This document shows, one piece after another, positions 2,410 through 57,549 of a stretch of 64,000 nt of DNA; position 1 is the first letter of the stretch, and the number at the start of each line of letters is the position of its first letter. Source of the stretch: Heterodontus francisci (lineage: Eukaryota). Location: positions 55,720,153-55,784,152 of the forward strand of contig NC_090390.1 in NCBI RefSeq assembly GCF_036365525.1, given 5' to 3'. The translations under genes were made by a program, and so were the position numbers. The notes beneath the pieces are model-generated. The model was not told where the DNA came from and ran no database searches. It was given only the letters and a program-made list of their open reading frames with translations.

Positions 2410-2694
2410 GTAAAAGTTTTTAAAGTCATGAGTTTATTCCAATGTTGTGAGATATAACCCTTGTTCTTTCTTTAATTGATTACTCATACTAACTAAAATG
2501 AAAGGACAATTAAACAAAAACATTCAAAAGGATAGTGAGATATAACCACAGCTTAGTCAGGAATGCTGAAATTGGAGCAGTACACAACTAAATCAATCAT
2601 TTCTCTTTTCTAAGCTCTGTAACATGGTTAAGAAAACATGATAGAACCTGGCAAACAGTAAATCCAAGCAAACTTAGCATCATAAATGTAATAC

Positions 2695-5230
2695 GGTGGC
2701 ATAGTGGTATTGTTACTGGACTATTAAACCAGAGACCCAGGGTATTGCTCTGAGGACATGGGTTCAAATCCCACCACAGCAGAAGGTGGAATTTGAATTG
2801 AATTAATAAATCTCGAATTAAAACCAAGTCTAATGATGGCCATGAAACCATTGTCGATTGTTGTAAAAATCAATCTGGTTCACAAGGGAAGGAAATCTGC
2901 TGTCCTAACCTGGTCTAGATTTGATTCCAGACCCACAGCAATGTGGTTGACTCTTACATGCCCTCTGAAATGGCCTAGTAAACCACTCAGTTGTACCTAA
3001 CTGTGACCAAGCCAATAAAGAATGAAACCGGCCGGAGCACCCGACATCGACCTAGGTATCGGAAACGACAACGGCAAACCCAGCCCTGTTGACCCTGCAA
3101 AGTCCTCCTTACTAACATCTGGGGGCTTGTGCCAAAGTCGGGAGAGTTGTCCCAAACACTTGTCAACTACAATCTGTAACCTCATGGCCTGGCATATTCC
3201 CCACTCTACCATTACCATCAGGCCGTGAGACCAACCCTGGTTCAATGAAGAGTGCAGGAGGGCATGCCAGGATCAGCACCAGGCAGACTTCAAAATGAGG
3301 TGTCAACCTGGTGAAGCTACAAGCCAGGACTACTTGCATGCCAAACTGCGTAAGCAGCATGGGATAGACAGAGCTAAATGATCCCATAACCAATGGATCA
3401 GACCTAAGATCTGCAGTCCTGCCACATCCAGTCGTGAATGGTGGTGCACAATGAAACAGCTAACTGGAGGAGGTCACTCCGTAAATATGCCCATCTGTAA
3501 TGAGGGGGGAGCCCAGCACATCAGTGCAAAAGGCAAGGCTGAAGCATTTGCAACCATCTTTAGACAGAGGTCCCGAGTTGACGATCCATCTCGGTCTCCT
3601 CCTGAAGTCCCCAACATCACAGATGCCAGTCTTCAGCCAATTCTATTCACTTCGCGTGATATCAAGGAACGACTGAAGGCATTGGATACTGCAAAGGCTA
3701 TGGGCCCTGACAACATTCCGGCAATAGTACTGACAACCTGTGCTCCAGAACTTGCCGCAGCCCTAGGCAAGCTGTTCCAGTACAGCTACAACATTGGTAT
3801 CTATCCTACAATGTGGAAAATTGTCCAGGTATAGCCTGTACACAACAAGCAGGATAAGTCCAACCCGGCCAATTACCACCTCATCAGTCTACGCTCAATC
3901 ATCAGTAAAGTGATGGAAGGTATCGTCGACAGTGCTATCAAACGACACTTGCTTAGCAATAACCTGCTCAGTGACTCTCAGTTTGGATTCCGCCATGGGC
4001 ACTCAGCTCCTGACCTCATTACAGCCTTAGTTCAAACATGGACAAAAGAGCTGAACTCAAGAGATCCAGTGAGAGTGACTGCCCTTGACATCAAGGCAGC
4101 ATTTGACCGAGTAAGGCATCAAGGAGCCTTAGCAAAACTGAAGTCAATTGGAATCGGGGGGAAAACTCTCCACTGGTTGGAGTAATACCTAGCGCAAAGA
4201 AAGATGGTTGTGGTTGTTGGAGGTCAATCATCTGAGCTCCAGGACATCACTGCGGGAGCTCCTCAGGGTAGTGTCCGAGGCCCAACAATCTTCAGCTGCT
4301 TCACCAATGACCTGCCTTCAATCATAAGGTCAGAAGTGGGGATGTTCGCTGATGATTGCACAATGTTCAGCACCATTCGTGACTCCTCAGATCCTGAAGC
4401 AGTCCGTGTAGAAATGCAGCAAGACCTGGACAATATCCAGGCTTGGGCTGATAAGTGGCAAGCAACATTTGTGCCACACAAGTGCCGGGCAATGACCGTC
4501 TCCAACAAGAGAGAATCTAACCATCTCCCCTTGACAGTCAATGGCATTACTATTGCTGAATCCCCCACTATCAACATCCGAGAGGTTACCATTGACCAGA
4601 AACTGAACTGACAGTACCGTGGCTACAAGAGGAGGTCAGAGGATAGGAGTCCTGCGGTGAGTAACCCACCTCCTGACTCCCCAAATCCTGTCCACCATCT
4701 ACAAGGGACAAGTCAGGAGCATGATGGAATACTCTCCATTTGCTTGGATAGGTGCAGCTCCGACAACACTCAAGAAGCTCAACACTATCCAGGACAAGGC
4801 AGCCCACTTGATTGTCACCCCATCCACAAACATTCACTCCCTCCACCACCGACGCACAGTGGCAGCAGTGTGTACCATCTACAAGATGCACTGTAGCAAT
4901 GCACCAGGGCACCTTAGACAGCACCTTCCAATCCCGCAACCTCTACCTCCTAGAAGGACAAGGGCAGCAAATGGTTGGGAACACCATCACCTGCAAGTTC
5001 CCCTCCAAGCCACACACCACCCTGACTTGGAACTATATCGCCGTTCCTCAACTGTCGCTCGGTCAAAATCCTGGAACTCCCTTCCTAACAGCTCTGCGGG
5101 GGTCCCTACTCCACATGGACTACAGCGCTTCAAGACAGCTCACCACCACCACCTCAAGGGCAATTAGGGATGGGCAATAAATGCTGGCCTAGCCAGCGAT
5201 GCCCACATCCCATGAATGAATTAAAAAAAA
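2695..5230 (+). mobile_element. CR1-group non-LTR retrotransposon with a tRNA-derived 5' head, no ORF1, internal deletion of most of the APE domain; degraded RT ORF
   Basis: A box TGGCATAGTGG 2697-2707 and B box GGTTCAAATCC 2761-2771. APE start KVLLTNIWGL at ~3099. RT motifs ALDIKAAFDRV, GAPQGSVRGP, MFADD in ORFs 3451-4611. C-terminus to 5167, then tail ...CATGAATGAATT(A)n. Confidence 0.92.
2697..2771 (+). promoter_or_regulatory. Type 2 Pol III internal promoter (A box and B box) at the head of the LINE
   Basis: Matches to TRGCNNAGYGG and GGTTCRANTCC consensus, 53 nt apart. Confidence 0.8.
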
Positions 5231-5299
5231 TATATAGATTGTGCAAAATGCAACACTTCTCTTGTTGCAGTCCACGAGACTGAGGCCTTAAAGTACAGC

Positions 5300-6480
5300 T
5301 CCTTAGTGCCTGGGTTTCTATGTCAAAAGTGCTGTTTCAGCTACAAAATAGCATCCACACCATGTATGCACACTGCTGGTGCGAGCCGCTCCGGATGCTA
5401 TTTTGGTGAGGGAGTTAGTGTGCTTGCAGTCAATGGCACCCTGTAAATCAGAAGAGATTGTAGGATGAGGGGGAAATGCGATGGGAGAAGGAGGAATAGG
5501 TGGGAGGATACTGCCATCTTCTATGGTTTCAGCCCTGCCAATGATGGCAAGCACCGTCTCATACATGGGGGTGAGGCTATGCAGCAAGCCTGTTCTCTGT
5601 TGGTTAAGTACTGCTGCCTCTGGGTATATGCTACCTTCTGCTGCAAGGAAGAGGGAAGTGTGTCAGTGAGTGTCGCGCAATGTGTTTAGTTGATCTGACT
5701 CTCATGGACTCTGGCAGTGTGTTCCGGGTGAAATGTGGGTGTCAGGCTTGCAGCAGTGTAAAGTGTCTGAGGGTGAGGTGAAGCTCTGAATGTTATGTAT
5801 GAGTTGTGATTGATAGAGACTGTTCGTGATGGCGTTGTGGTGCATTGAGCCGTGGCTGAGGCTAGTGCTGCAGTTGGTGAAATGCAACATTTGAAGATAT
5901 ATTCACTGATGTTGACAACTCATGAGATCATTGAACTTTTTGCAGCACTTTATTCAGGTCCTTGGAGCTTGGTCATTGTCATTGGCAGCCATGACTATCT
6001 TGTCCCATGTCTTTGCAACATTTTCTGGAGGGTCTCCTGGCCCTCTGTAGATAGATCACATCTCTCCTCCTCTTCACCTTCACCACCAGGGCATCCAATG
6101 CTGTGTCACAGAACCTTGGAACATACTTTTTCCCCTGTTACATGATAGGTCTCTCTTATACCTGCTCACAGTCTCTTCCACAAAGAGTTCCAGCAACTCT
6201 ATAACACTCGAGCCAGAATGCACCTTCCCTTTAAAAGGTGCAGGCTAGCTTTAAGTAGTGCAGGCAAACTTTAAGTGATGCTAGCCTCACACAAACTTGG
6301 GCCCCCTACTGAGGAATGAAGCCATTCAACAGCATGTTTTGCGAAGGCTGCATGCAGTAGTTACGCAAATAAACAGGCAGCACGAGGTTAGCATGCCGCC
6401 TGCATCAGAAGCAATGGGCATGGGTACGACGCACATCACGATTCCCATGACCGTCTTATGGGACTATCGAATTTTCCCCC
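5300..6480 (-). mobile_element. Harbinger-derived element carrying a degraded, spliced Myb/SANT (MSANTD/NAIF1-like) gene
   Basis: Minus-strand 6143-5895 reads PRFCDTALDALVVKVKRRRDVIY...WDKIV...CCKKFNDL. A second exon follows a TTCCTTGCAG acceptor (~5640-5500, QKVAYTQRQQ...LTPMYETVLAIIG). End GGGGGAAAATTCG at 6480 is flanked by TTA. Left boundary uncertain. Confidence 0.7.
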
Positions 6481-7237
6481 TTATTTTCTGTACTTGTGAA
6501 TTATATGGCCTACGTTGGCTTCTTATCTCTTCGTATTAGGATGTTATCAAATCATTGGTCATTTTCTTGTATTCATTAAGGCAAAAGGTATGAGATTTCT
6601 TTTGAACAGTAACTAAGACTCACTGGCTTCAACTTTTTGGTGGCATGAGGCAAATTGGACCAGACATTTGCTGAGAGATACACTCTGTTATTCCCCACCC
6701 CCACCTTTTTAAAGAGTGGGAGCAGGAACATTAAATGCATTTTAATTTTAATGTTCTCTGTATAGTTACTAGTGGATCTCCTGTGGTGTACTTGCAGACT
6801 GAAGAGATGAATGGGCTCTACGTCACTCTACCAATGAGAAAGAAAAGTGACACTGCAGACACTTAGGTTGGTCAACTAAAAATGGTTTAGTTATTTGCTC
6901 AAGTTCTCATTTGAAACAAATAAACTTACTATTTGACCGTGAATAGCCTATGCATGTGATACAAAATGTTGCCACCAGACTAGTGTAAACAAAAAAAGTG
7001 AATAGAGATCTCAACAGATGAATCTGGCAAATAATTTAATATCTCTTGGTGCATAAAATGACCTGAGGCCTTTATTAAACCCTCAGGGACTGCACTCAGT
7101 TCAAGTCACTACAATTGAATTATATGCAGTGCCTATGGCACAACTGAAAGTTTAAATTGGCACTGCACTAAAGAACAAATGTTACCCTATCTGGCTCCAG
7201 CAAATCAAAAGAGCAAAGTCAACCTCTAGCATTAATA

Positions 7238-9740
7238 GGAACGGGAGCAGAGATCCAAGAGCACAGCAAGAGCGGGACCAGTGACCGAGAGCAAGGGGCG
7301 GCAGGGATAAAAGGAGTGGAAGCAGACAGAGAACAAAAATTAATCAAGGAGTGCTGTCACAGGACAGCAGGTAGGTATTCAGTTAGTGAGTATTACTTTT
7401 TTTGCTCTTTAAGTTAGGGAAGTGATTTAAACTAGGAGCTGGGAAAATATAACTATCACTTTATTAAATCAATAATTTAAAACTAGATAAACCAATTAGT
7501 CAATGAAACTAAAAATATTGAGTGAATGAAAGCCTCAGCTAATTAAACATACAAAACAAGGTTAGATAGGAATAGCAGGGCAGATGGACATAACTGCAGC
7601 ATGTGGGAATTGATGGAGACCAGTGAGATCCCGCATCTGCAGTAGGTGTTTGCAACCCAAGGAAATTGATCTCAGAGATGTTGAGCTGGAGACTGATCTG
7701 CAGATATTGTGACATATCAGGGAGGGAGAGAGTTCTCGGGGCACTTTTGATGTGGTCATACCCCTTAGTTTAGGCAGTAGTTTAGATTTGGTCAGTGGGG
7801 AGGGACAGCAACATGTGATTGTGAGTCAGGCAGGAATGTCATCCCAAAATGCAGTGACAGAGGAGTCTCACCAGGTACAAGGTACTTGTTACCTGATTGG
7901 ATGAGAACAAATATTGGAAGGAGGATGAGAAAATTCACCTCGACATCATAGTAGAGGAGGCCATTCAAGTTGGAGACTAGAAAGGAATGTGGTAATGATA
8001 GGGGATAGTATAGTCATGGGGATAGATACTGTTCTCTGCAGCTGCAATTGTGAGTTCCAAAGGCTATATTTCCTCCCTGGTGCCAAGGTTAAGGATATTT
8101 CCTCCTGGTTAGAGAAGAACTTGGAGTGGGAAAGGGATGATCCAGTTGTCATGGCCCATGTAGTAACCAGCCATGTAGATAGAACTAGGAATGAGGCTCT
8201 GCTGAGGGAATTTGAGGATCTAGGGTACAAATTAAAAAGCAGAACCTCAAAGATAATAATCTCTTCATTACTACCTGAGCCATGTGCAAATTAGCATACG
8301 GTCAATAAAATCAGAGAGTTGAAATTGCAGCTCAAAGAATGGCGTGTGAGCCAGAGGTTCCAATTCTTGGGGCACTGACACCAGTACTGGGGAAAAAAGG
8401 AACTGTTCCATTGGGATAGGCTCCACCTAAACAGGACTGGGACCAGTGTCCTCGTAAATTGAATGATGCAGACTATAGATAGGATTTTAAAAGGTTGGGG
8501 TAGGGTGTAGTTCAGGTAAGGTGTAATTTATAAATCTAAAGAGAAAAATCAAAAGCCATAGAGCACTGTAGCAATTTGGGTAAAGAAAGCAGTTTGTAAC
8601 AGGAAGGGACAAAAAGTTTAAGAGTATGAGTGCATCAGTGAATAAGGTCAGATCAGGGAGAAATGATAAACAGTCAAAATTCAAAGCGCTTTATCTGATA
8701 AATGGGTTTGATCTAATAACCATTTCAGAGATGTGGTTGCAGGGTGACCACAGCTGGGAACAAAATATTCCAGGGTACTTGGCATTTTGAAGAGACAGAC
8801 AAAATAGAAGAGGTCGGAGTGGGTCTTGTGGAAATAACCCTGATAAAGGATGGCATGAGGACAATGGTAAGGAAGGAACTCAGCTCGGAAGACCAGGCTG
8901 TAAAATCAGTATGGGTGGAGATTAGGAATAACAAGTGGCAGAAGAGACTGATGGTAGTAGTTTATAGGCCCCCTTAACAGTAGCTATACAGTTGAGCAGA
9001 GGATTAACCAAGAAATAAGAGGAGCTCATAACAAAGGTAATGCAATAATCATGGGGAGTTTAATCTTTATATAGACCAGACAAATAAATTTGGCTAAAGT
9101 AGTTTGGAGGACGAGCTCTTGGAATGCATTTGAGACAGTTTCCTAGAACAATACATCATGGATTGTAATGCGACAGGGTTAATTTGTAATCTTATAGTAA
9201 GGGATCCTCTGTGATAGAGTGATCATAATGTGATAGAATTCCACATTGAGTTTGAGAGTGACGCACTTAAACCCAAAACTAGAGCCTTAAACTTAAATAA
9301 AGCCAATTACATAGGTATGGGAGTGAGTTAGAAACATAGGAACATAGAGCAGGAATAGGCCAGCCGGCCCCACAAGCCTGCTCCGCCATTCAACTAGATC
9401 ATGGCTGATCTTCTACCTCAATGCCAGTTAGCTAAGGTAGATTGGGAAATTAAATTTAAAGGTATGACGGTAGATAGTGAACATTAAAAGTAATATTTCA
9501 TAATTCTCAACAAATATACATTCCATTGAGAAATAAAATCTTCATTAGAAAGGTGAACCATCTGTGGCTAACTAAAGAGGTTAAGGATAATATTAGATTA
9601 AGAAGAGGCTTATAATGTTGCTATGAAGAGTAGTAAACCTGAGGATTGGAGAGTTTTAGAAACCAGCAAAGAATGACCAAAAATTGATGAAGAGGGAGAA
9701 AATAGAATGAGAGAAAGCGAGTAAAAAATATGAAAACAAA
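7238..9740 (+). mobile_element. Older CR1 LINE, 5' part (5'UTR, ORF1 esterase, ORF2 APE), heavily degraded and 3'-truncated
   Basis: ORF 7989-8294 (MIGDSIV...FLPGAKVKDI) and ORF 8744-8977 (SVWVEIRN...VVYRPP). Confidence 0.85.
9332..9425 (-). mobile_element. Very short 5'-truncated CR1 3' end inserted in the older CR1
   Basis: Reverse-strand CR1 3' tail with (TTCCTATG)-like repeats. 6-bp TSD AGTTAG at 9326-9331 and 9426-9431. Confidence 0.8.
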
Positions 9741-9749
9741 TTTGCTCAC

Positions 9750-10265
9750 CATTTCTCAGTTTGAGTTCTACCAGGGCCTCTCATCTCCAGACCTTATTAC
9801 AACCTTGGTCCATACATGGACAGAAGAGCTGAATTGAAAAGGTGACATGAGAGTGATTGCTCTTGAGATCAAGGCAGCATTTGACTAAGTGTGGCATCAA
9901 AGAGCCCCAGCAAAATTGAAGTCAATGGGAATTAGTGGGAGAACTCTCCAGCGGTTGGAGTCATACCCATCACCAAGGAAGATAGTTGTGGTTTTTGGAG
10001 GCCAATCATCTCAGTCCCAGCTCATTGCTGCCGGAGTTCCTCAGGGTAGTGACTAGACCTAGTCATCTTCATCAATAACCTTCCCTCCATCATAAGGTCA
10101 GAGGTGGAGACATTCACTGATGATTGCACTGTGTTCAGTACCATTCACAACTTTTCAGATATTTAAGCATACATCAAGACTTGGATAACATTTAGGTTTG
10201 TGCTGATAAGTGGCAAATAACATTAGTGTTACAAAAGTGCTAGGCGATGGCCATCCCCAACAACA
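9750..10265 (+). mobile_element. RT fragment of the tRNA-headed CR1-group LINE family
   Basis: Colinear with 3970-4505 (ALEIKAAFD, GVPQG). Confidence 0.85.
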
Positions 10266-10694
10266 TTCTGGGAGTAGAGCAGAGAGGACCAGAGCGGACC
10301 TGTGGGGAGAACGCTGGGAGAGGAGCCTATAAATCAACCCCGAGGATAGAGGCCCAGTCTCTCACCTTCCGGAGCGGAGAGGACCGGAGCGGACCTGTGG
10401 GGAGAACGCCGGGAGCGGAGAGGAGATCTTCCAGTGCGCCGGATTTTTGAAAAAAAAAGGGCAAACAGTGATGTCAGAGGAGAGCTGCAAGGTGATTGGT
10501 TGGTGAGTAGCAGCTGTTAGAATATCTTTAAAAAAAGGGGAAATTTTTTTTTGTTGGAAAAAAAAATCTCTGTGATAAGGTTTCTACTAAAGTTTTTTTT
10601 TAAGGACTTTAGATTGAACTGGGTAGAACAAGGCCCCTAGTATAATTAGCATTTTTTAATGAAGAGAGCAACTAATTAACCTAAAGGGTAAGTC

Positions 10695-11645
10695 ATGGCA
10701 GGAGCGCTCAGCCCCGTGATATGCTCCTCCTGTGCTATGTGGGAAATCAGGGACGCTTCCAGTGTCCCCGACGACCATGTGTGCAGGAAGTGTATCCATC
10801 TGCAGCTACTGGCTACCCGCAATATGGAGCTGGAGCTGCGGGTGGATTCATTGTGGAGCATCTGCAATGCTGAGGAAGTCATGGATAGCACGTTTAGTGA
10901 GGTGGTCACATCGCAGGTAATGGCTGCACAGGCAGAAAAGGGATAGGTGACCACCAGACAGAGTAGTAGGCGCAGGCAGGTAGTGCAGGAGTCCCTTGTG
11001 GCCATTCCCCTCTCAAACAAATATACCGCTTTGGATACTGTTGGGGGGATGACCTCCCAGGGGAAAGCAGCAACAGCCAAGTTCGTGGCACCTCGGAGGG
11101 CTCTGCTGCACAGCAGGGGAGGAAAAGGGTTGGAAGAACTATAGTGATAGGGGATTCTATCGTAAGGGAGGCAGATATGTGTTTCTGTGGCCACAAATGA
11201 GACTCCAGGATGGTAAGTTGCCTCCCTGGTGCTGGGGTCAAGGATGTCTCGGAGCGGCTGCAGAACATTCTGAAAGGGGAGGGTGAGCAGCCAGAGGTCG
11301 TGGTCCATATTGGTACTAATGACATAGGCAGGAAGAGAGATGAGGTCCTGCAAAGTGAATATAGGGAGTTAGGCAGAAGGTTAAAAAGCAGGACCTCTAG
11401 GGTTGTAAATCTCAGGATTACTCCCTGTGTCACGTGCTAGTGAGGGTAGGAATAGAAGGATTAGGCAAATGAATGCGTGGCTGAAGAGCTGGTGTAGGCG
11501 TGAGGGCTTGAGCTACTTGGATCATTGGGATCTATTCTGGTGCAGAGGTGACCTGTACAAGAAGGACGGGTTGCATCTAAACTGGAGGGGGACCGATATC
11601 CTTGTGGGGAGATTTGCTAGTATTACTCGGGAGTGTTTAAACTAG
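10695..11645 (+). pseudogene. CR1 ORF1 (Zn-finger/leucine zipper plus SGNH esterase), disrupted
   Basis: In-frame TAG at 10944 and frameshifts. Motifs CSSC..CRKC, GDSIV, GTND, DGLH. Confidence 0.9.
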
Positions 11646-11779
11646 TCTTGCAGGGGGGTGGGACCCAAAGTAGTAGTCTCTCAGATGAGATAGTTGAGGC
11701 AAATGTAGAGGTTAAACCAAGTAAGTCCAGCAGGCAGGCCGGGCAGGGGCAGGACAGGGAGCGTGGAAGGTCTGGTAGG

Positions 11780-14553
11780 CTAAACTGCATTTACTTTAAT
11801 GCATGAAGCCTTACAGGTAAGGCAGATGAACTCAGAGCATGGGATTGTGATATTATAGCTGTTACGGAAACGTGGTTGAGGGATGTGCAGGACTGGCAGC
11901 TCAATGTTGCGGGGTACCGATCCTTCCGGCGTGACAGAGGTGGAGGTAAGAGAGGAGGGGGAGTTGCACTATTGATTAGGGAGAACATCACGGCAGTACT
12001 TAGAGAGGATATCCCGGGGGGAATGTCCAGCGAGGCCATTTGGGTAGAACTTAGAAATAAGAAAGGGGTGATCGCTTTGATGGGATTATACTATAGACCC
12101 CCCAATAATCAGAGGGAAGTGGAGGAGCATATATGCAGAGAAATCACAGATAGGTGTAGGAATTATAGTGTTGTAATAGTAGGTGATTTTAACTTCCCTA
12201 ATAATGACTGGGACTGCCTTAGGGCTAAGGTGGAGAAGAATTTGTTAAATGTGTCCAGGATAGTTTTCTGAAGCAGTATGTGGATGTTCCTACTAGAGAA
12301 GGGGCTACACTTGACCTCCTCTTAGGAAATGAGGATAGGCAGGTGGTTGATGTGTCAGTGGGGGAGCACTTTGGGACCAGTGACCACAACTCAATTAGCT
12401 TCAAGATAGTTATGGAAAAGGATAGGACTGGTCCTCAGGTTGAAGTCCTAAATTGGGGGAAGGCTAATTTCGATGGCATCAGACAGGAACTCTCAAAAGT
12501 TGAATGTGAGAGGCTGTTTACAGGTAAAGGGACGTCTGGCAAGTGGGAGGCTTTTAAAAGTGAGATAGGAAGAGTTCAGGGCTGGCATGTTCCTGTTAGA
12601 TGGAAGGTCAAGGCTGGCAAGTTTAGGGAACCTTGGTTGACGAGGGATATTGAGGGTCTGGTCAGGACAAAGAAGGAGGCATATGTCAGGTATCGGCAGC
12701 TAGGATCGAGCGAGTCCCTCGAGGAGTATAGGGGATGTAGGACTACACTTAAGAAGGAAATTAGGAGGGCAAAAAGGGGCCATGAGATTTCCCTGGCAGA
12801 TAAGATAAAGGAGAATCCTAAAAGATTCTATAAGTATATTAAGAGTAAAAGGGCAGCTAGGGAGAGAGTAGGTCCCCTTAAGGATCAGTGTGGCAATCTA
12901 TGTGTGGAGCCATAGGAAATGGGAGAGGTCTTAAATGAATATTTCTCATCCGTATTTACTGTGGAGAAGGTCATGGAAGCTAGTGAGTTCAAGGGAGGGA
13001 ACACCGATATCCTGGAGCATATCAACATTACAAAGGAGGAGGTGTTGGAAATATTGAAGCACATTAAGGTGGATAAATCCCCAGGGCCTGACCAGGTGTA
13101 TCCTAGGATGCTATGGGAAGCAAGGGACGAGATTGCTGGGGCCCTGGCAGAGATTTTTGTATCATCGTTAGCCATGGGTGAGTGGAGGATAGCGAATGTT
13201 GTGCCATTATTTAAGAAGGGCAGCAGGGATAAGCCAGGGAACTACAGGCTGGTGAGCCTTACATCAGTAGTGGGAAAGTTACTGGAAGGGATTCTAGAAG
13301 GCAGGATTTAAATGCATCTGGAAAGGCATGGTCTGATTAGGGATAGTCAGCTTGACTTTGTGCATGGGAAATCATGTCTCACGAATTTGATTGAGTTTTT
13401 TGAGGTGGTGACCAAGAGGATTGACGAGGGCAGGGTGATTGATGTTGTCTACATGGACTTTAACAAGGCCTTTGACAAGGTCCCGCATGGTAGGCTGGTC
13501 CAGAAGGTTGGAACACATGGGATCCAGGGTGAGCTAGCAAATTGGATACAAAATTGGCTTGGTGAAATGAGGCAGAGGGTGGTAGTGGAGGGTTGTTTGT
13601 CAGATTGGAGGCCGGTGACCAGTGGTGTGCCGCAGGGATTGGTGCTGGGCCCTCTGTTGTTTGTCATATATATTAATGACTTGGATGTGAATGTAAGGGG
13701 CATGATTGGTAAGTTTGCAGATGACACCAAAATTGGTGGTATCATGGACAGTGAAGAAGGTTGTCTAAGGTTACAATAGGATATAAATCAACTGGGAAAG
13801 TGGGCAAGGGATTGGCAAATGGAATTTAATGCAGACAAGTGTGAAGTGATGCATTTTGGGAAGTTAAACCAGGGCAGGACATATACAGTGAATGGCAGGG
13901 CCCTGGGGAGTGTTCTTGAGCAAAGAGACCTTGGGGTGGAAGTACATAGTTCCCTGAAAGTGGCAACACAGGTAGACAGGGTGGTGAAGAAGATGTATGG
14001 AATGCTTGCCTTCATCGGCCGAGGCATTGAGTACAAGAGTTGGGACGTCATGTTACAGTTGTACATAACGTTGGTTAGGCTGCATTTGGAGAACTGTGTG
14101 CAGTTCTGGTCGCCACACTACAGGAAAGGTGTGATTAAGCTAGAGCAGGTGCAGGAAAGATTCACAAGGATGTTGCCTGGTTTGGAGGGCTTGAGCTATA
14201 AAGAGAGATTGGATAGGCTGGGTCTGTTTTCCCTGGAGCGAAGGAGGCTGAGAGGGGACATGATAGAGGTATATAAAATTATGAGAGGCATAGATAGAGT
14301 AGATAGCCAGAGTCTGTTTCCCATTGTAGGGGTGACTAAAACTAGAGGGCATAGATTTAAGGTGAGAGGGAGGAGGTTTAAAGGGGATCAAAAGGGTAAA
14401 TTTTTCACACAAAGATTAGTGGGTATCTGGAATGAGCTGCCAGAGGAGGTGGTGGAGGCAGGAACAGTAGCGACATTTAAGAGGCATCTGGACAGGTACT
14501 TGAATGAGCAAGGCACAGAGGGATATGGAATTAATGCAGGCATGTGGGATTAG
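11780..14553 (+). pseudogene. CR1 ORF2 (APE endonuclease plus reverse transcriptase), disrupted
   Basis: Consecutive ORF fragments 11876-12271, 12280-12915, 12919-13311, 13312-13779 and 13819-14553 with canonical APE and RT motifs. Confidence 0.95.
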
Positions 14554-15464
14554 TATAGATAGGCATTATGGTCGGCATGGACACGGTGGGCCGAAGGGCC
14601 TGTTTCTATGTTGTACGACTCTCTGACTCTATATCAACAGGGCACACTAAAAATACGATCTGCTGTTCATCAAAGTCACACAAAACTGTTTGGTAATTAA
14701 CAGAATTAGGTTGTAAAAACTATGCAGATTCCCATTGCATTTAACCATAAAGTCCACGGGAAGCTGAGAAAATTTCAAAATGTACATTGCAGAGGCTCAT
14801 GAGATACAAAACTATTAATTGAAAACCAATTCAGAAATCACTCACACATGTAGTAAAATGAAATATAAAACTAAAAATTCTATGAAATAATGAAAACTGA
14901 CATTTTAAATTCTAAACCTGACTCATTTAACTCGACTGCTGTGTACAGCACAACCATCCAATACTAGTTTACGATTTCTTTCCTGCATTTCTATGGTCAC
15001 TGACATTCTATAATATGCCCTGGGGAGTTTCGTTATCTGTGGGATGGCTTCATTTAATTGAATATTTAATGCTCTCATGAACTTTTCTTGAATAAGACTG
15101 ATAACAGGAATATGCACCCACCTCAGCTTGCTCTTGAAAGTGCAACATTCTGACAAAGCCTGCTTCTGGCTAGATTGAGAATCCAGTTGTTATGTTCAAT
15201 AAATTAAAAATAATCAGCAGATAGATCCTCATTGTCTCACTTGTTACACAACATGTGATTTCATTATTTTCAGCATAACTGTGTAAATATGTGGGTGCAG
15301 TTTTGAGGGTGAATTATCCAGTGATCCAGTGGTTCAGGGGCACAAGAGGCATTGGGGGACTGGAATATCGATAACAGATCCATACAGTAAAATATGTGCC
15401 ACAGTGACTTTATAAGCTTGAGCTCATTCAAAATACTGCTGACGATATCCTAACTCAAACCAAA

Positions 15465-21669: not shown

Positions 21670-22390
21670 CCAGACTTAGGTTGACCAGTGGCAGATATCA
21701 TTTGTGCCATGAAGTGCCTCAAGTAAGCAAATCCCAGGTGCCTCCCCTTCACCTTCAATGACCCTACCATTGCTGAGTCTCCAACTACCTACATTCTAGG
21801 GGTCACCATTGACCAGAAGTTTAACTGAACTAACCGCATCAATACTATGACTACAAGAGCAAGGCAGAAACTGGATACTCTGTGGCAAGTGGCTCACCTC
21901 CCGATCCCTCAAATACTCTCTACCATCTAGAAATCTCAAGTCAGGAGTGGAATGAATTATTCAAAATTGACCTGGAAAGGTGCAACTGCAGCTACACTCA
22001 AGAAGCTCAACACCATCCATCAAGGTGCAGTTCTGTTAAATGGTGCCCCTGCAATTGGACTCAATATCCATCTCCTTCACTGGTGCACTTTGGCAGTAGT
22101 ATGTACAGTCTACAGAGTGCACTGTAGCAATTCATCAAGGTTATTTTGACAGTGCCTTGCTCTACTGCAGCCTCTATGACCAAGAAGAACAAGTTCAACA
22201 ATGTTGTGGGAACACTGTCACCTCCAAGTTCCCACTGAAATACTCAGCCATCCTGACTTGGACTTATATCGGGGTTCCCTCATTGTCACTGCATTTGATT
22301 TCTGGAATTTCCTACCTAATACTTTTTTGGGAGCACTATAACCAACTTGTCAGGGCAATGAGAGATGAGCAATAAATGTGGTCTACATTC
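21670..22390 (+). mobile_element. Old 3' fragment of the tRNA-headed CR1-group LINE family
   Basis: Colinear with 4430-5200 (ATLKKLNTIH, AVVCTVYRVHCSNS; GGGCAATGAGAGATGAGCAATAAATG tail). Confidence 0.8.
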
Positions 22391-23179
22391 TTACAAGTGA
22401 GAAAAGTACAAGTTAAGGAGGTTGAAAACTGAGGTAATACAACATTACAATTGCTGGGATAGGGTAATTATAGATGACTAGAATACATCAGCATTTTCCA
22501 TGCTAAAAGTGGAATTAGGAATTTATAATGGAAAAAGTTCACAAGTACATTTATGAATTTGAATAAGTTGGTCTAGTTGATTGTTCCCAGGGCATTGCAT
22601 ATAGGTTAGAGTCAAGGCAGTTTAATTGGATCTTTCTTATGGGCAAGAAGCAGGGGGGGGCATGTCAAACCTGCCAGATAGCATCAATTCGAGGTCAGGC
22701 TATTTTAACTTCAGGGCCTAATTTAAATTCAGCTGGCCAGCTGCCAGTATGAAATTGGCAGAAAGAAGCAGCTTGCTGTTCAACTTCGCAGCTCTTGTGA
22801 GATCATTGGACCTTTTCTTACACTGAAGCCAGGTTGTGGGATGATGCTGCTGGCACTGACCCTGCCAGCCACCTCTGTCCAGGCTAGTTGGTTAGTGACC
22901 CTGGTGTTGCTCCTGCAGATGCTGGGGAACAGTATCTTCTCGATACGATTGACTGGGCAGCCTATCAATCATATTAAAGCAAGATGTGGGAGGTAAAATC
23001 ACCCAGGCCTCAAGCTAGCAACATTGGTGGAGATGCCGAAATCTCACAACAGGTCACAACAGGGAAACCTGTGAAGTTGGAGCGAAGAAAGATTGTCCCC
23101 AAGCTTCTTTAGACTGTCCTAGACCCTCCTCCTCTGTCTCTTATTTTTCCTCTTTTCCATGTCTAGCAATGTTTGACTT

Positions 23180-26100
23180 ATTTATTCATTCATGGGATGT
23201 GGGCATTGCTGGCAAGATCAGCATTTAATGCCCATTCCTAATTGGTTTTGAGAAGGTGATAGTGAACCACCTTCTTGAAACACTGGAATCTGTGTGGCGA
23301 AGATATTTCCACAGTGCTGCTAGGGAAGGAGTTCCAGGATTTTGACCCAGGAGGATCAAGGAATCGCAATACATTTCCAAGTCAGGGTAGTGTGTGACTT
23401 GGAGGTAGTGGTTTACCCATGCTCCTACTGTCTTTGTCCTTCTAGACATGTGCTTTGGTGAAAAGGCTTGGAGAGTCAGAAGGTGAATCTCACCACAGAA
23501 TACCCAGCTTCTGGCCTGCTCTTCTAGCCACAGTATTTATTTGGCTGCTCCGGTTAAATCTGTCAATGGTGACCTCCCCAGGATATTGATGGTGGGGAAT
23601 TCAATGATGGTAATGTCATTGAATGTCAAGGGGAGGTGGTTAAACTTTCTCTTGTTGGTCATGACCACTGCCTGGCACTTGCTATTTGTTATTTGCCACT
23701 CACCAGCCCAAACCTGAATGTTGTCCGGGTCTTGCTCTATACAAGCATGGATTGCTTCATTATCTGCGGAGTTGCAAATGGAACTGGACACATTGCAATC
23801 ATCATGAAACATCCACACTTCTGATCTTATGTTGGAGGGAAAGTCATTGATGAAGCAGCTGAAGATTGTTGGGTCTAGGACACTAGCAACTCCTGCAGCA
23901 ATGTCCTGGGGCAGATATGATTGGCCTCCAACAACCACAACTGCTTCAATTGTTGCTAGGTATGACTCCAACTAATGGAAAGGTTTCCCCCGATTCCAAT
24001 TAACTTCAATTTTATTAAGGCTCCTTGATGCCACACTTGGTCAAATGCTGCCTTGATGTCCAGGGCAGTCACTCTGACCTCACCTCTGGAATTCAGCTCT
24101 TGTCCATGATTGGACCAAGGCTGTAATGAGGTTTAGAGTGCTCCTGGCGGAACCCAAACTGAACATTGGTGAGTAGGTTACTGATGAGTATGTGCTGCTT
24201 GATAGCACTGTCAACAACACATTCCATCACTTTGCTGATTGAGAGTAAGCTGATGAGGTGGTAATTGGCCAGATTGGATTTTTGTGGCAAGACATACCTG
24301 AGCAACTTCCCGCTTTGTTGGGTAGCTGCACTGGAACAGTTTGACTAGAGTTCTGGAGCACAAGTCAAGAGCAATACTGCCAGCATGTTGTCAGGACCCA
24401 CAGCCTTTGCTGTATCCAGTGCGCTCAGCTATTTCTTGATATCACATGGAATTAATCGAATTGGTTGAAGACTGGCTTCTGTGATCATGGGGACCCCAGG
24501 AGGAGGCTGAGATGGATCATCAACTCTGACTGAAGATGGTTGAAAACTTTTCAGCCTTGTCTTTTACACTGATGAGCTCTGTTCTGCCATCATTGAGGGT
24601 GGGAATATTTTTGGAACTTCCTCCTCCAGTCAATTGTTTAATTTTCCACCATCATTCATGACTGGATATGGAAGGAGTACAGAGCTTTGATCTGATCCAT
24701 TGGTTGTGGGATTGCTTAGCTCTGTCTACAGCCTGTTGATTCCACTGTTTCGTAGGCACACAGTCCTGCATTGGAGCTTCAGCAGGTTGACACCTCACAG
24801 TTAGATACTACTGCTGCTGCTCATTGGACCAGGATTGATCCCCTTGTTTGATGGTAATGGCAGAGTGAGTGATATGCCAGGTCATGAGGTTACAGATTAT
24901 GGTGGAATACAATTCTGCTGTTGCTAATGGCCCACTGCACCTCACGAATGCTCAGTATTGAGCTGCTAGATCTTTTCTCAATCTATCCCATTAGGATGAT
25001 GGTAGTGCCACACAACATGATGGAAGATGTCCTCAGTATGAAGATGGAACCTTTTCTCAACATGGACAGTGCGGTTGTCACTCTTATCAATACTGTCATG
25101 GATAGATGCATCTGTGACAGGTAGATTGGCAAGGATGAGGTCAGCAGGTTTTTCCCTCATGTTGGTTCTCTCAACCACCTGAAACAAACCTGTCAGTCAG
25201 CTATGTCTTTCAGGACTCAGCCAGCTCAGTCAGTAGTGGTGCTACTGAGCCACTCTTGGTGATGAACATTGAAGACTCCAGCCAGAGTACATTTTGCACC
25301 TGCGCTTCTTCCTATTGATCTTCAACATGGAAAAGCACTAATTTATCAGCTGAGAGAGAGCAAGAGGTTTTCTTGCTCATGTTTGACATGATGCCATGAG
25401 ACTTCATGGTGTTCAGAGTCAATATCGATGCCTCTTCCTCCCAACTGTGTACCAATGTACCACCACGTTTGGATGTATCATGAGGGATGGTGATGGATGA
25501 GTCAGGGACGTTGGCTGAAAAGTATGATTACGTCAGGCTGTTGCTATAGCCCTCTCAGGGCTGAAAGTTGAGGCCCTAATGGGGGTGGGCTTGAAGGCAG
25601 GTGGGTACAGAATTTTGCACCGCCGACCAGCGTACCGGATCCCTGACTCCATCCCACCCCCAGGCCATTATCCAGGAGGAGGGATAGGGTGGGTGGCGTG
25701 TGAGAAGCCAATTAAGCCAATTAAAGGCTTATGAATGCCTGTTGTCGAAGGCCAACTGGAGTTTTCCAGTTGGTCTCCAGGACCCCGGAGATGTCAGGGA
25801 ACAGTATACATGCCTGGAAGTGGACTTTACAGCACGTGTCTTTGTTCTGGTGTGTCCACATCCAATGCCATCCATCTGATTTCACTCTTATTATACTTTG
25901 TCACAGCAGTTTGGTACAACCGAGTGGTTTGCTAGGTCATGTCAGCGGTAAGTTAAGAATCAAGCACATTGCTATGGGTCTTGAGTTACATATAGGGTAG
26001 ACCAAGTAAGGATGGTACATTTCCTTTCCAAACAGGCAGTAATGAACAAGATGGGCCTTTGCAACAATCCAGTAGTTTCATGGTTATCAAATATTCCATA

Positions 26101-26225
26101 TTTATTTAATTAACTGAATTTAAATTCCCCAGCTGTCATGGTGGGACTTGAACTCATGTCTGCAGATCATTAGTCCCAGCCTCTGGATTACTATTTCAAT
26201 AACATAACCACTAGTCTACCATTCC
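23180..26225 (-). mobile_element. Second, older near-full-length copy of the tRNA-headed CR1-group LINE (APE retained), interrupted by a MITE-like insert
   Basis: A box TAGACTAGTGG (26218-26208) and B box AGTTCAAGTCC (26154-26144). Same head-to-ORF junction as 2975-3006. APE remnants 24880-25545 (DLILANLPVTDASIHDSIDKSDNRTV), RT 23537-24305, 3' tail at 23180-23240. Confidence 0.9.
25558..25815. mobile_element. Harbinger-type MITE fragment inserted in the LINE
   Basis: Starts GGGCTGAAAGTT; CCAATTAAG repeats; interrupts LINE colinearity. Confidence 0.5.
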
Positions 26226-27031
26226 CAGATTCTGGAGCTATGTTGCATTGTACACAAAGCGATTACAGGCTGGATTTTCATAATGGAGGTGGGAAAAAGG
26301 AACCAGGTCTGATTTTGGGTCAGAAACCTGTCTCCCATGGGAAGCTGATTCACATTACAATTTTCAAATGGCTAAACCTTTAATTGGCATGGAGATAGGT
26401 TTCCTGCCCACTTAGAGCCAGTGGGATTGAAAATGGCAGTGGGTCAGATCAAAAGTGGGGCTCATGTAGACTTCCACGGCAGCCATCATTGACACTGCTT
26501 GTTTTCCTGAGGGAGAGATCTGCCTTCCACAGCATCAGGAGGAAGCAAAATGTCACAGGGGAGCTGGAGGCCTGGCACTAGGGGCACAGCAGACCCTTGC
26601 TTCATTGATCACCTGGATCTAATGCTCGAGGCTGTGAAAGAGAAGAGGGAGGTCCTCTTCCCAGAGGATGGTAGGAGGAGACCATCATGTCATGCAGCAG
26701 GGGCATCTCTATGTTCAGTGTTATTCCGCCCTCCACCCACTCTTCCTCCTCTGTTTTACCTCCTGCTCCTCCCCTGAAAAGCTGTCTCTATTCAGTCCTC
26801 AAGATCCACACCTCTCTGGAGGGTCATGTTATACAGAGCACAGCAGACCATCACAGTGACTGAGACCCTTGCAGAAGGATATTGGAGGGCACCACTGACC
26901 AATCCAAGCACCGGAATCGAATCTACAGAAACCCGATGGCCTGCTCAATGGTTGTCCTGCTGAGCAGATGGCATTGGTTGTTTTGCCTCTGTGCCTCTGT
27001 CTGGGATGCACGTAGAGAGGTCAGTAGTCAT

Positions 27032-27387
27032 GATTATGATTAGATTAGAGATACAGCACTGAAACAGGCCCTTCGGCCCACTGAGTCTGTGCCGAACATC
27101 AACCACCCCTTTATACTAATCCTACACTAATCCCATATTCCTACCAAACATCCCCACCTGTCCCTATATTTCCCTACCACCTACCTGTACTAGTGACAAT
27201 TTATAATGGACAATTTACCTATCAACCTGCAAGTCTTTTGGCTTGTGGGAGGAAACCGGAGCACCCGGAGAAAACCCACGCAGACACAGGGAGAACTTGC
27301 AAACTCCACACAGGCAGTAGCCGGAATCGAACCCGGGTCCCTGGAGCTGTGAGGCTGCGGTGCTAACCACTGTGCCACTGTGCCGCC
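27032..27387 (-). mobile_element. tRNA-derived V-SINE (HE1-like) with CR1-derived 3' tail
   Basis: A box TGGCACAGTGG, B box GGTTCGATTCC, V-domain GTGGAGTTTGCAAGTTCTCCC...GGTTTCCTCCCAC, tail GGGCCGAAGGGCCTGTTTC shared with CR1. Confidence 0.92.
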
Positions 27388-34082: not shown

Positions 34083-34310
34083 CTTCTTCTTCTTCTTTGG
34101 CCTCCTTGTCTTGGGAGACAATGGGTAAGCGCCTGGAGGTGGTCAGTGGTTTGTGGAGCAGCGCCTGGAGTGACTATAAAGGCCAATACTAGAGTGACAG
34201 ACTCTTCCACAGGTGCTGCAGATGAAATTGGTTGTCGGGGCTGTTACACAAGTTGGCTCTCCCCTTGCGCTTCTGTCTTTTTTCCTGCCAACTGCTAAGT
34301 CTCTTCGACT
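34083..34310 (-). mobile_element. RTE LINE, short 3' end
   Basis: Near-identical to 43350-43570 and 48424-48645; (GAA)n tail; 7-bp TSD TACTAAA at 34076-34082 and 34311-34317. Confidence 0.93.
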
Positions 34311-37199: not shown

Positions 37200-37800
37200 T
37201 TGGAGGCTGGGAGTTCTGTGGCAAGTAACCCACCTCCTGACTCCCTAAAGTCTGCCCACCATCTACAAGGTACAAGTCAGGACTGGGATGGAATATCCTC
37301 CACTTGCCTGGATGGGTGCAGCTCCAACAACACTCAAGAAGCTCGACACCATCGAAGACAAAGTAGCTCGCTTGATTGGCACTCCATTTACCACCTTCAA
37401 CATTCACTCCCTTCACCAGCGACACAGTGGCAGCAGTGTGTCCCATCTACAAGATGCACTGCAGCAATGCACCAAGGCTCCTTAGACAGCACCTTCCAAA
37501 CCCGCAACCTCTACTGCCTAGAAGAACAAAGGCAGCAAACGCATGGGAACACCACCACCTGCAAGTTCCCCTCCAAGTCACACACCATCCTGAATTGGAA
37601 CTATATCGCCGTTCCTTCACTGTCGCTGGGTCAAAATCCTGGAACTCCTTTCCTAACAGCACTGTGGGTGTTCCTACCTCACATGGACTGCAGAGGTTCA
37701 AGAAGGCGGTTCACCACCACCTTCTCAACGGCAATTAGGGATGGGCAATAAATGCTGGCCTGGCCAGCGACATCCACATCCCGTGAAAGAATAATTTTTA
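37200..37800 (+). mobile_element. 5'-truncated 3' fragment of the tRNA-headed CR1-group LINE family
   Basis: Colinear with 4640-5225 (MEYPPLAWMGAAPTTLKKLDTI; WEHHHLQVPLQVTHHPELELY). Confidence 0.92.
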
Positions 37801-40110: not shown

Positions 40111-41644
40111 CAAACATTTGCAGTTAATTACTCCTCTCTAATCACAATGTGTTCTATGAATAAACAGTAGTTTAATAAACAAGCACACATCCATTAGCTT
40201 TAATGATGAGCAGCAGCCCTTTAGGAACTGCTGTCTGGCCAGTATTCCTGCCAGACCCTAGCCAAGGATACTACTGGCCTAGACCCTACACCATTGTTTT
40301 TTTTTTACTCTGCAGAGATCAGAATAAAATGAGGAGGAAGGCTAGCTTCTATAATTCAGTGAGGCCAGCCATCCACATGCCTATCACACACATGTCCACA
40401 CCACAGACAAGAACAGTCCCAGTTTTCCCTGTCTTCCAATATCAGCAATAATGCATTTAAATGAGCAGAACTTGCGAACTCAAACATGTTTAGCTTTCTT
40501 TGATGATTTTACACAATTTAAGTGATGTGATATAATCCCACCAGTACTGCGATAGAATTGCATAGCCAAATATTTTTCTACAAAAGAATTTCAGACAAAC
40601 ATTCCCTCACCTATATTTATGACCTTGACAATTTTGCTGAACTTTAAGGGTTTTTTTTTTAACTATCCTGTGTATTAAACTTGCTGGGAACAAAGTTGAC
40701 AGTGTCACAACTTCTTTTACCCATCATTTTTAATAGTTCACAGAAAGGAGGGTCTGAAATCCTTTCCTTATTTAAGAATTCAAACATAGAACCCAGAAAT
40801 ATGACTGTAGTGCTCGAAGTCACTGTAATGCCTATTTTTCACATTTTCAGGTTTTAAATCTCATTACTTTTATGAGCCTGCATTGTTAGTACTTTAAATA
40901 GTTAATGTGAAGTGCCTGGTTTCAGTAACCAAATTGCTTCCTGTCATCATTTTATTCTATATTCAGTATAATACAAGATTGGTAGATTTATCCTTTAGGG
41001 AATTATAATGGCTTAAGCCAGCCAAAAAGCTGATTTCTTCTCACCTGAAATTGAGGCAGTTATCCCTTAGTACAGTTCATACTGCTTAATTTATTAAATT
41101 CAGCAAGAGTTCTTTTTCTATTCTACACTGCTCTTACTTCTCTGTGATGTGGCCAATAGATGAGGGCTAGTAATCTTCTGGACATTTGCAAGGCAGCAAA
41201 CTTTCATTTTAATCTTTTCAGAGATCGTAATTGCCTTTTATTACACAAAATTGCCAATTCTGTAGTGCCATGTATTAATAAAATAATAACTGTTATGTAG
41301 AAAATCTCCTGAGAGAAACAATCCCATAAATATTACATAGTATTTAGATTTATTAACAAACTTTAATGATATTGAAGTAAAACGATAAAGAAACAGCAGT
41401 TGCAAATAATGTTTGAGATGAGTAAGTTGATAGATTCCAAAATACCATATAGATGATTAGATTTAGAAAATTCTCTGGGATCCAAGATCAAATAAGATTC
41501 TGCAGGAGATTTTCAAATTCCTCCAAGCTGTTCTGAAGTGTTGATAAGCCTGGGTAATCAAAAGATACCTGCTGACATCAACGGTGGATGATATTTATGA
41601 CCTTTACAGATGGGGATGGTTACATCCCATCTAAGCTTTCAACA

Positions 41645-41776
41645 GAAACATAGGAAGGAACAGAGGAATAGGAGTAGGCCATTAAGCCCCTCAAGCCTAT
41701 TCTGCCATTCACTTAGATCATGGCTGATCTATATCTGAACTCCCAACAACACGCCTTAGTTTGAAACCCTTATTAC
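41645..41776 (-). mobile_element. CR1 3'-end fragment
   Basis: GGAATAGGAGTAGGCCATT...AGATCATGGCTGATCT motif, shared with 9332, 53514 and 57550. Confidence 0.75.
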
Positions 41777-43830
41777 TGTTATGAGAGTACTTTTTTTTGT
41801 AAAATATGTTTTAAGGACTTATAGTTGAATTATGGACATTGATTCATCTGGAATTAATGAAGAGATGCTGAACTTTGTGTTTTTTTTAAAAAGAAGTCAC
41901 CAGAGGTTCCTGGATTTGGCTTATAAACAAGTCTTACTGGAAGACATCTGTCTGTGGATAATCACCAGCAGTGGTTGTTTTTGATTTGGGGAAAGATTTA
42001 CAAAGAAGTGACAGGTCAAGATTTTTAGAAGTGACAGGTCAAGACTTACTTCTGGAAGGTTTTTAATTTCAGTTTGAACTGTTACAAAAGACAGTTGGTT
42101 TTTGCCTGCCAAAGAAGATTCGGCTCTCTTTCTCTCGCTTGAAAAGAAACCCTGCATACAGTGAGTCAATTTCCTATTTCCAACTATATTTGAAGAAACC
42201 CTGCATATTTGAAGTAAACCTGCATATTGAATGTGTGGGAACTGAAAACCCTTGTTGCTGCATTTCTGCTGTAAGGAAGGCCTATCTGAAGCCTCAGTAG
42301 CTGCATTTCTTTGAAAGCCTACCCAAACTGATCTTCAACATCGCCTGGAAAAAACTGTTCAAGGAAGATCCCAGTCACAGCCATCTATACGCATTTGGGA
42401 TGCCAAACCAAAACCAAGGACAAGTATTCTACCTAAGTGTTTTTGTTTTGTTTTCTTTGTAACAATACTGTAAACAAAAATCCTTTTTTATTTTTTCTGA
42501 TTAACTGGTGTATGTATGTATGTGTGCGTGTGAGGTGCAAAGTACGGAAAGTCCTCATCAGGGAACTCCTCTTTGCTGACGATGCTACTTTAACATCTCA
42601 CACTGAAGAGTGCCTGCAGAGTCTCATCGACAGGTTTGCGGCTGCCTGCAATGAATTTCGCCTAACCATCAGCCTCAAGAAAACGAACATCATGGGGCAG
42701 GACGTCAGAAATGCTCCATCCATCAATATTGGCGACCACGCTCTGGAAATGGTTCAAGAGTTCACCTACCTAGGCTCAACTATCACCAGTAACCTGTCTC
42801 TAGATGCAGAAATCAACAAGCGCATGGGTAAGGCTTCCACTGCTATGTCCAGACTGGCCAAGAGAGTGTGGGAAAATGGCGCACTGACACGGAACACAAA
42901 AGTCCGAGTGTATCAGGCAATGTGTCCTCAGTACCTTGCTCTATGGCAGCGAGGCCTGGACAACATATGTCAGCCAAGAGCGACGTCTCAATTCATTCCA
43001 TCTTCGCTGCCTCCGGAGAATACTTGGCATCAGGTGGCAGGACCGTATCTCCAACACAGAAGTCCTCGAGGCGGCCAACATCCACAGCTTGTACACACTA
43101 CTGAGTCAGCGGCGCTTGAGATGGCTTGGCCATGTGAGCCGCATGAAAGATGGCAGGATCCCCAAAGACACATTGTACAGCGAGCTCGCCACTGGTATCA
43201 GACCCACCGGCCGTCCATGTCTCCACTTTAAAGACGTCTGCAAACGCGACATGAAATCCTGTGACATTGATCACAAGTCGTGGGAGTCAGTTGCCAGCGT
43301 TCACCAGAGCTGGCGGGCAGCCATAAAGACAGGGCTAAAATGTGGCGAGTCGAAGAGACTTAGTAGTTGGCAGGAAAAAAGACAGAGGCGCAAGGGGAGA
43401 GCCAACTGCGCAACAGCCCCGACAAACAAATTTCTCTGCAGCACCTGTGGAAGAGCCTGTCATTCTAGAATTGGCCTTTATAGCCACTCCAGGCGCTGCT
43501 TCACAAACCACTGACCACCTCCAGGCACGTCTCCATTGTCTCTCGAGATAAGGAGGCCCAAAAGAAAGAAAGAGGTGCTAAAATAGATAAAGGGCTTTGA
43601 TATTTCGATTTGCATGTGTATGTTTTACTTTGTTATTGGTTGAGACTTGTATAATAAAACTGATCATTTTGTTGTTTATTAAAGAAACCTGGTTGGTGTA
43701 TTTTATTCTACGAAAAATAGAGTATATGATTGACTATATTGGTAAGTGGGAAAATTTAAATATATGTTGTGACCTGTGGAGAAGTGGGACTGGAATAAAC
43801 AGTGGCACTCCTCCCGCCTCAGTCGTAACA
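41777..43830 (+). mobile_element. Solo LTR (Gypsy-type) interrupted by an RTE LINE
   Basis: Ends TGTTATGA...TCGTAACA (inverted); AATAAA signals near the 3' end; LTR sequence rejoins across the RTE TSD. Confidence 0.75.
42539..43571 (+). mobile_element. 5'-truncated RTE-clade LINE
   Basis: LLFADD, FTYLGS, LYGSEAW, LRWLGHV and a C-terminal CSTC...HSRRC Zn finger; (GAAA)n tail; 7-bp TSD GAGGTGC at 42532-42538 and 43572-43578. Confidence 0.95.
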
Positions 43831-57548: not shown

Positions 57549-57549
57549 C

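Follow-up and report, generated by a model that had tools for sequence, protein, structure and literature searches.

LINEs and SINEs are usually told apart by their polymerase and their content: LINEs are transcribed by Pol II and code for proteins, whereas SINEs are transcribed by Pol III and are non-coding. The stretch of DNA analysed here (hereafter the window, 64,000 nt of Heterodontus francisci contig NC_090390.1, positions 55,720,153 to 55,784,152) raises the question of whether a single element can stand on both sides of this division. It contains two copies of an element in which a tRNA-like head precedes a LINE: a younger one on the plus strand (copy 1, 2696-5230) and an older one on the minus strand (copy 2, 26226-23178). 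Is the head part of the LINE, and which polymerase would then transcribe the whole? The features of both copies and of further copies of the same family are given in Table 1.

Table 1. Features of the Zenon copies in the window.
Feature	Positions	Strand	Remarks
Copy 2, tRNA-like head (A box 26218-26208, B box 26154-26144)	26134-26226	-	tRNA model 16.9 bits, below gathering score
Copy 2, conserved non-coding 5' UTR body, up to head/leader junction	25917-26133	-	74% identity to 2777-2993; nearest to dogfish-type consensus by eye
Copy 2, A-rich spacer and leader, decayed, partly deleted	25816-25916	-	72% identity, first 43 columns
Copy 2, foreign insert of 258 nt in place of the start of the APE region	25558-25815	-	MITE identity unconfirmed
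Copy 2, AP endonuclease (APE) region, decayed, absent from copy 1	24907-25557	-	tblastn with P0002/P0005; loose read ends
Copy 2, linker, RT and C-terminal region, disrupted by numerous stops, frameshifts and deletions	23252-24906	-	
Copy 2, 3' tail	23178-23251	-	85% identity to 5154-5225
Copy 1, tRNA-like head (A box 2697-2707, B box 2761-2771)	2696-2775	+	19.3 bits, E 0.26; A+B pattern at 2697
Copy 1, conserved body; departure point of the short forms at 2991 or 2993	2776-2993	+	joints 2991 to 5154 and 2993 to 5154
Copy 1, spacer, leader and first APE codons (from 3099)	2994-3162	+	out-of-frame ATG at 3022
Copy 1, linker, RT and C-terminal region, after copy-specific APE deletion; T-run-depleted	3163-5167	+	Pfam RVT_1, E 6e-31
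Copy 1, 3' tail (stem-loop, AATAAA, A-run), retained in short forms	5154-5230	+	fold z -2.64, 3/200 shuffles
Old RT fragment, same Zenon family	9730-10263	+	
Old 3' fragment, same Zenon family	21706-22385	+	
Younger 5'-truncated Zenon copy with tail	37203-37792	+	86% identity to copy 1; T4 = 0 in 583 nt

A preliminary description of copy 2 had placed an A box, a B box and the end of the head (25936-25908) on the minus strand, and all three read as it said. The head of copy 2 aligns with positions 2702-3003 at 69% identity over 317 columns (E 3e-31), a score that none of 500 shuffles reached. Identity between the copies is 73% in the tRNA part, 74% in the body, 72% across the junction and first leader, 77% in the linker, 80% in the RT, 74% in the C-terminal part and 85% in the tail. 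Their flanks are no more alike than shuffles (413 of 500 score as well upstream and 223 of 500 downstream). Hence, we see no segmental duplication with shared flanks, a possibility that the description had itself raised. Judging from these unrelated flanks and a likeness of 72-85% throughout, the two copies are independent insertions.

The copies have decayed in different ways. Copy 1 lacks nearly all of the APE, with a join at 3162/3163, and copy 2 retains most of it. Behind the insert of copy 2 we recovered, as described, the remains of the APE (25285-25142, E 2e-4), then the RT and the tail. The copies had also been given the same leader; its two ends are recognisable, but the leader alone is not significant (34 of 500 shuffles reach its score). 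The insert is foreign, as had been proposed, but its identity as a MITE was not confirmed: we found no terminal inverted repeat or target-site duplication at its ends and no second copy of it. It may be a remnant trimmed by a deletion. A 16-nt inverted match (94%) links it to the upstream flank of copy 2 (26260-26700), hinting that the two belong to one family of short non-autonomous elements. No convincing target-site duplication surrounds either copy of the LINE (the best candidates match at 7-9 of 9-11 nt and are displaced from the ends). By eye, copy 1 has a head of the white shark/catshark type and copy 2 one of the dogfish type, as would fit a copy 2 from an older subfamily. Of the 40 listed sites at which copy 1 lacks the family-majority letter, 31 can be aligned, and copy 2 has this letter at 26 of them.

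The window contains several other repeats. Another tRNA SINE with A and B boxes occurs at 27052-27387 and 61457-61750 (both on the minus strand), and its tail matches the 3' end of a canonical CR1 (14543-14615). This pairing resembles that of the V-SINE HE1 with HER1. An inverted pair of 1.9 kb (579-2393 and 10412-12257, 91% identity) comprises a CR1 5' part and APE start, and its second member continues into a nearly full CR1 ORF, to about 14616. Another inverted pair, of 395 nt and 97% identity, lies at 54347-54741 and 62644-63038. Dispersed repeats (53510-54080 and 57545-58126; 9330-9418 and 41644-41730) are 66-82% alike.

Which LINE is this? By sequence likeness, both copies are decayed members of the elasmobranch Zenon LINE, in the CR1 group. 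We text-searched two window motifs in the supplement of PMC13343379, where they matched seven rows and one row. The seven rows holding the head motif are all seven elasmobranch Zenon consensuses of that supplement (CarCar_, RhiTyp_, ScyCan_, SquAca_ and HypSab_Zenon, from white shark, whale shark, catshark, dogfish, with three, and Atlantic stingray; five species, 2,886-3,314 nt). We assign the copies to Zenon because their 5' DNA matches sequences placed in this family by that paper. The comparison with the consensuses was made by eye over their first 400 nt, a stretch that ends before their tails and ORFs. Within it, all seven start at most 6-10 nt before the A box, keep A- and B-box-like motifs, share head, body, junction and leader with the window copies, and lack runs of four T (T4). 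The corresponding 400 nt of two hagfish and one coelacanth Zenon have, by eye, no such head, and contain T4 runs. Like the window copies, the published elements have no ORF1, an APE-RT ORF, an A-rich tail and a length of about 3.3 kb, and we see no structural difference.

The protein searches place the RT region of copy 1 in Pfam RVT_1, at 27-36% protein identity to the canonical CR1s of the window. The nearest named proteins come from the shark Heptranchias perlo (63-73%), and the nearest whole proteins are APE-RT proteins of 850-1,050 residues (37-41%). A Pfam search with two short APE pieces and the C-terminal piece returned nothing. By tblastn and Pfam there is no ORF1: about 105 nt lead from the head end to the APE start, and a single APE-RT ORF follows. 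Copy 1 ends in an A-run (5223-5230), and A-rich loose read ends lie behind 5216-5230 in all four sequencing runs aligned. One database protein (P0125), a Heptranchias aldo-keto reductase gene model, includes about 250 residues of the Zenon ORF, through exonisation or as an annotation artefact.

Zenon is known from elasmobranchs, coelacanth and hagfish, as an element with no ORF1 and a poly-A end (Stuart et al. 2026, PMC13343379). According to that paper, elasmobranch Zenons were previously not in any repeat repository. Its table gives intact ORF2 counts of 0/2,313, 1/1,419, 3/612, 0/59, 1/294 and 0/396 (one cell is garbled). With almost no intact ORF2, the elasmobranch family is largely decayed. 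The words tRNA, promoter and polymerase have no match in the main text of PMC13343379 or its preprint, nor has Pol III in PMC13343379, and a whale shark preprint (bioRxiv 443036) names CR1-Zenon once and tRNA never. The accessible supplements of PMC7245038 gave no motif match. In our literature search, a tRNA head or Pol III promoter on a shark Zenon was undescribed; Repbase, Dfam and subscription journals lay outside this search, and prior notice there is possible. The family is thus a known one whose promoter architecture in elasmobranchs was apparently unremarked before.

How tRNA-like is the head? Both copies score below the gathering score of the Rfam tRNA model (29 bits), and ARAGORN finds no tRNA in either head. 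The A and B boxes lie near the 5' end in a tRNA-like frame, with a long spacing between them, and the B boxes of the stingray and dogfish consensuses deviate from the canonical form. An early guess that the head is that of the shark SacSINE1/Deu elements was dropped: a 14-letter motif from bivalve Deu sequences, the one motif compared, has a single chance-level match in the window, outside the head. SacSINE1 and the DeuSINEs (PMC5499810, PMC4824008) also include a shark tRNA-derived SINE with a conserved body. However, the body of SacSINE1 is a Deu body and its tail is of the L2-2_CM type, whereas here the Deu motif is absent from the head and the tail is that of Zenon. The nearest precedents we found are RTE-1_DAn with its relatives and Ingi-3_AC (PMC5786205), LINEs that include part of a SINE body or a tRNA-like sequence. 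These belong to the RTE and Ingi clades, and the accessible text mentions them briefly, giving no position for it, no role as a promoter and no analysis of T-runs.

The head motif has no match in metagenome contigs. None of 83 related LINE loci resembles the head (best E 0.41) or has an A+B pattern, and a tRNA gene scan of 45 of them was negative, although the 5' end may be missing from many of these contigs. The three matches in viral contigs were weak and irrelevant. Within the body, a purine-rich motif (2884-2902) resembles part of a conserved RTE 5' UTR domain in the accessible supplement of PMC5786205, over about 15 letters that may match by chance. A possible stem at this motif shows, by eye, a paired change in the consensus from whale shark.

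We aligned reads to positions 2550-5400 at 80% likeness, for 4 of the 24 runs listed; read sets of five organisms contain a fraction of 0.18-0.55 of the words of copy 1. One of the aligned runs consists of contigs and is RNA-like, its RNA status being a guess. Another, X22, holds raw reads of a capture library, in which depth is only a rough guide. In the flanks its summed depth stays below 2. It rises to 3,564 and 4,583 over the head and reaches 6,523 for the junction bin, 6,196 over the leader and 5,500-7,900 over the 5' RT body, with about 29,000 at the tail. This is the usual 3'-biased profile of a LINE, with head and leader at one level. Before 3163, 3,603 loose read ends (agreement 0.9) match the 3' end of the APE region of copy 2, indicating that full-length members carry the APE. 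Among the loose ends listed, none falls at the head/leader junction. This is no proof of continuity, because the loose end expected behind 3162 is equally missing from the list. In X22, 1,152 molecules end at 3115 on one strand, giving a strand excess at about 2970-3115, possibly an artefact of capture or amplification.

The preliminary description regarded the head as an integral part of the element, and the sequence comparisons support this view. The junction is the same in both copies, identity is flat across head, junction, RT and tail, and read depth is continuous from head to leader. A SINE that inserted by chance beside a LINE, or a segmental duplication, has in its favour that SINEs and LINEs are both abundant in the window. 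Such an origin now deserves next to no credence, given the unrelated flanks, a continuous depth in the thousands and the architecture shared by all seven consensuses; the published elasmobranch Zenons refute it.

Short elements made of the head joined to the tail had been predicted, and they are present in all four runs aligned. The best-supported joints lead from the head end to the tail: 2991 to 5154 (four of four runs, 470 reads in X22) and 2993 to 5154 (three of four runs, 395 reads in X22). Both have no letters in between and one shared base. Together, the 13 head-to-tail joints listed for X22 comprise at least 1,167 reads. In organism A, the short form does not account for the depth of the head, among the joints listed. 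The available parts of PMC13343379 do not describe such forms. Made of the LINE's own 5' and 3' ends only, they are SIDEs (short internally deleted elements) by structure. Most simply, they are deletion derivatives of the LINE, because the main joints hold no extra letters.

The direction could have been the opposite, with a short head-plus-tail SINE coming first and Zenon gaining its head by template switching. Exchange of modules is common among SINEs, many of which use Zenon tails (PMC11481361, PMC6685494), and the head end has about 3.5 times the depth of the leader in runs X6 and X15. However, the switch would have had to occur no more than 2 nt from the border between body and tail of the SINE itself, a coincidence that deletion from a LINE does not need, and Zenon repeatedly generates internal-deletion elements (PMC6740152). 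We therefore consider a SINE origin rather doubtful. In Lepidoptera, a single-ORF Zenon likewise yields short elements, Persaeus, from its 5' and 3' ends (moths and butterflies; PMC6740152). As far as the accessible text of that paper goes, Persaeus shows neither homology to tRNA nor a Pol III promoter, whereas the short form found here is structurally a tRNA SINE. ZenoSINE and the bivalve HCD-SINEs (PMC6685494, PMC11481361) are also short elements mobilised via a Zenon 3' tail, but in the accessible text they have only the tail in common with the LINE, whereas here head and body are common too. Under the deletion account, which we prefer, internal deletions keeping head and tail would have given rise to a SINE-like short family.

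Vertebrate Pol III terminates at four T. The ORF of copy 1 (1,944 nt) has 6 runs of three or more T where 13.7 are expected, and none of 1000 synonymous shuffles was as low; under a null based on four-fold sites the expectation is 19.7. It has no T4, against 2.5 expected from synonymous shuffles (P 0.06) and 3.8 from four-fold sites (P 0.007). The absence of T4 taken alone is borderline (P 0.05-0.09 under the stricter nulls). T4 is missing from 2,527 nt of copy 1 and from the 37203 copy, which has 2 T-runs against 4.3 expected (P 0.05) but is too short a fragment to be very informative. In the three old copies we count 4, 2 and 2 T4 runs. The preliminary description had counted about four sense-strand T4 runs in copy 2. 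The count is right, but as evidence it has no weight, being equal to chance (4.07 expected under a first-order model; 6.6 from base composition, P 0.22). The T-run statistics come mainly from copy 1, an APE-less copy, and the test is presumably conservative because decay should add T.

The depletion concerns T only: copy 1 has as many runs of A, C and G as expected. The three CR1 ORFs of the window show no T-run depletion. Our outside control consisted of the best 80 of 452 related LINE loci, on metagenome contigs, which are distant (25-35% protein identity where scored) and mostly AT-richer. The 61 loci with a long open RT frame have a median observed-to-expected ratio of 1.0 and a minimum of 0.74, against 0.44 for copy 1; the other 19, tblastn segments, range from 0.79 to 1.22. 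All 80 contain T4. Copy 1 of this elasmobranch Zenon thus carries a strong signal of terminator avoidance, specific to T and to the sense strand. The window also contains young RTE-like LINE fragments (42563-43566, 48425-49424 and 34088-34310, 91-94% alike), of which the two 1-kb pieces have no sense-strand T4, yet only about one is expected in each.

These data bear on the polymerase. The element might be an ordinary Pol II LINE whose integral head is a relic, or a Pol II promoter or enhancer, with T-runs depleted for some other cause. LINEs are generally regarded as Pol II transcripts (PMC5786205), the tRNA scores are weak, and lepidopteran Zenon-derived elements have no Pol III promoter in the accessible text of PMC6740152. 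However, a depletion that is T-specific on the sense strand, and absent from all 80 relatives (the best 80 of 452) and all three window CR1 ORFs, is hard to reconcile with this account, as are A- and B-box motifs at a tRNA-like distance from the 5' end in all seven consensuses. We regard it as improbable. That Pol III makes a full-length Zenon RNA is, in our assessment of these sequence features, quite probable, even if tRNA-model scores below threshold and departures in the B box weigh against it.

Could such an RNA also be translated? Pol III RNAs are uncapped and poorly translated, which weighs against it, as does the lack of an in-frame ATG before the APE. Third codon positions are the most diverged in all four copy pairs (0.245 against 0.178 and 0.175 between copies 1 and 2), which indicates that the source elements were under selection for protein. 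In copy 1, there is no in-frame ATG from the stop at 2976-2978 to the APE start, and the out-of-frame ATG in the leader is kept, by eye, in six of the seven consensuses. An ATG-codon-TAG at 2970-2978 is in frame with the APE in both window copies and, by eye, in three consensuses. Readthrough of this stop into the APE was considered and rejected, since in the consensuses of whale shark and dogfish-1 the two are out of frame. Nor do the window copies support an IRES-like structure in the body: their decayed sequences give z values of -1.0 and +1.4, no better than shuffles. The tail stem-loop of copy 1 has a z of -2.64, and that of the 37203 copy one of -1.3.

We propose that, before the split of sharks and rays, a SINE-type head derived from a tRNA became the 5' end of a Zenon. 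Its A and B boxes, as internal promoter elements, would recruit Pol III, with transcription starting at the first bases of the element, and a sense strand purged of oligo-T terminators would allow the whole 3.3-kb RNA to be made. Pol III would stop at the first T-run of the 3' flank, which lies 171 and 180 nt downstream of the two window copies. The RNA would then serve as template in target-primed reverse transcription, via the 3' stem-loop. Most likely the single APE-RT protein would be translated from it as well, through cap-independent, non-standard initiation. We lean slightly towards this complete scheme, in which Pol III transcribes the whole Zenon and the same RNA is both reverse-transcribed and translated cap-free.

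The labour might instead be split, with Pol III making the template RNA and the protein coming from capped Pol II read-through RNAs driven by host promoters. This would explain the head, the start position and the T-run depletion with no need to translate an uncapped RNA, and 39% of whale-shark Zenon-like sequence is intronic (bioRxiv 443036). Yet host-driven RNAs would still meet the upstream ATGs and lack an in-frame start, and the third-position bias of all four pairs fits selection on a protein that acts on its own RNA. Hence, we find a split of this kind unlikely.

At its broadest, the reading of a single Pol III RNA is that a vertebrate autonomous LINE has replaced its Pol II promoter by a Pol III head of tRNA origin, purged terminators from about 2.8 kb of coding sequence and is translated from uncapped Pol III RNA, in hundreds to thousands of near-full-length copies per shark or ray genome, and that its deletion derivatives are SINEs born complete with head and body. 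We judge the case for and against this whole to be evenly balanced. A compact single-ORF element with its own internal promoter would be directly testable in a retrotransposition assay. If the reading is true, the elasmobranch Zenon would offer a one-step route to a SINE, with a SINE body traceable to the 5' UTR of a LINE, an origin proposed by Kojima (2018) and, in the accessible text, found only for RTE and Vingi. It would also be a naturally occurring long message made by Pol III, whose codons record selection against terminators, and as a coding LINE of 3.3 kb with a Pol III promoter it would break the division between LINEs and SINEs.
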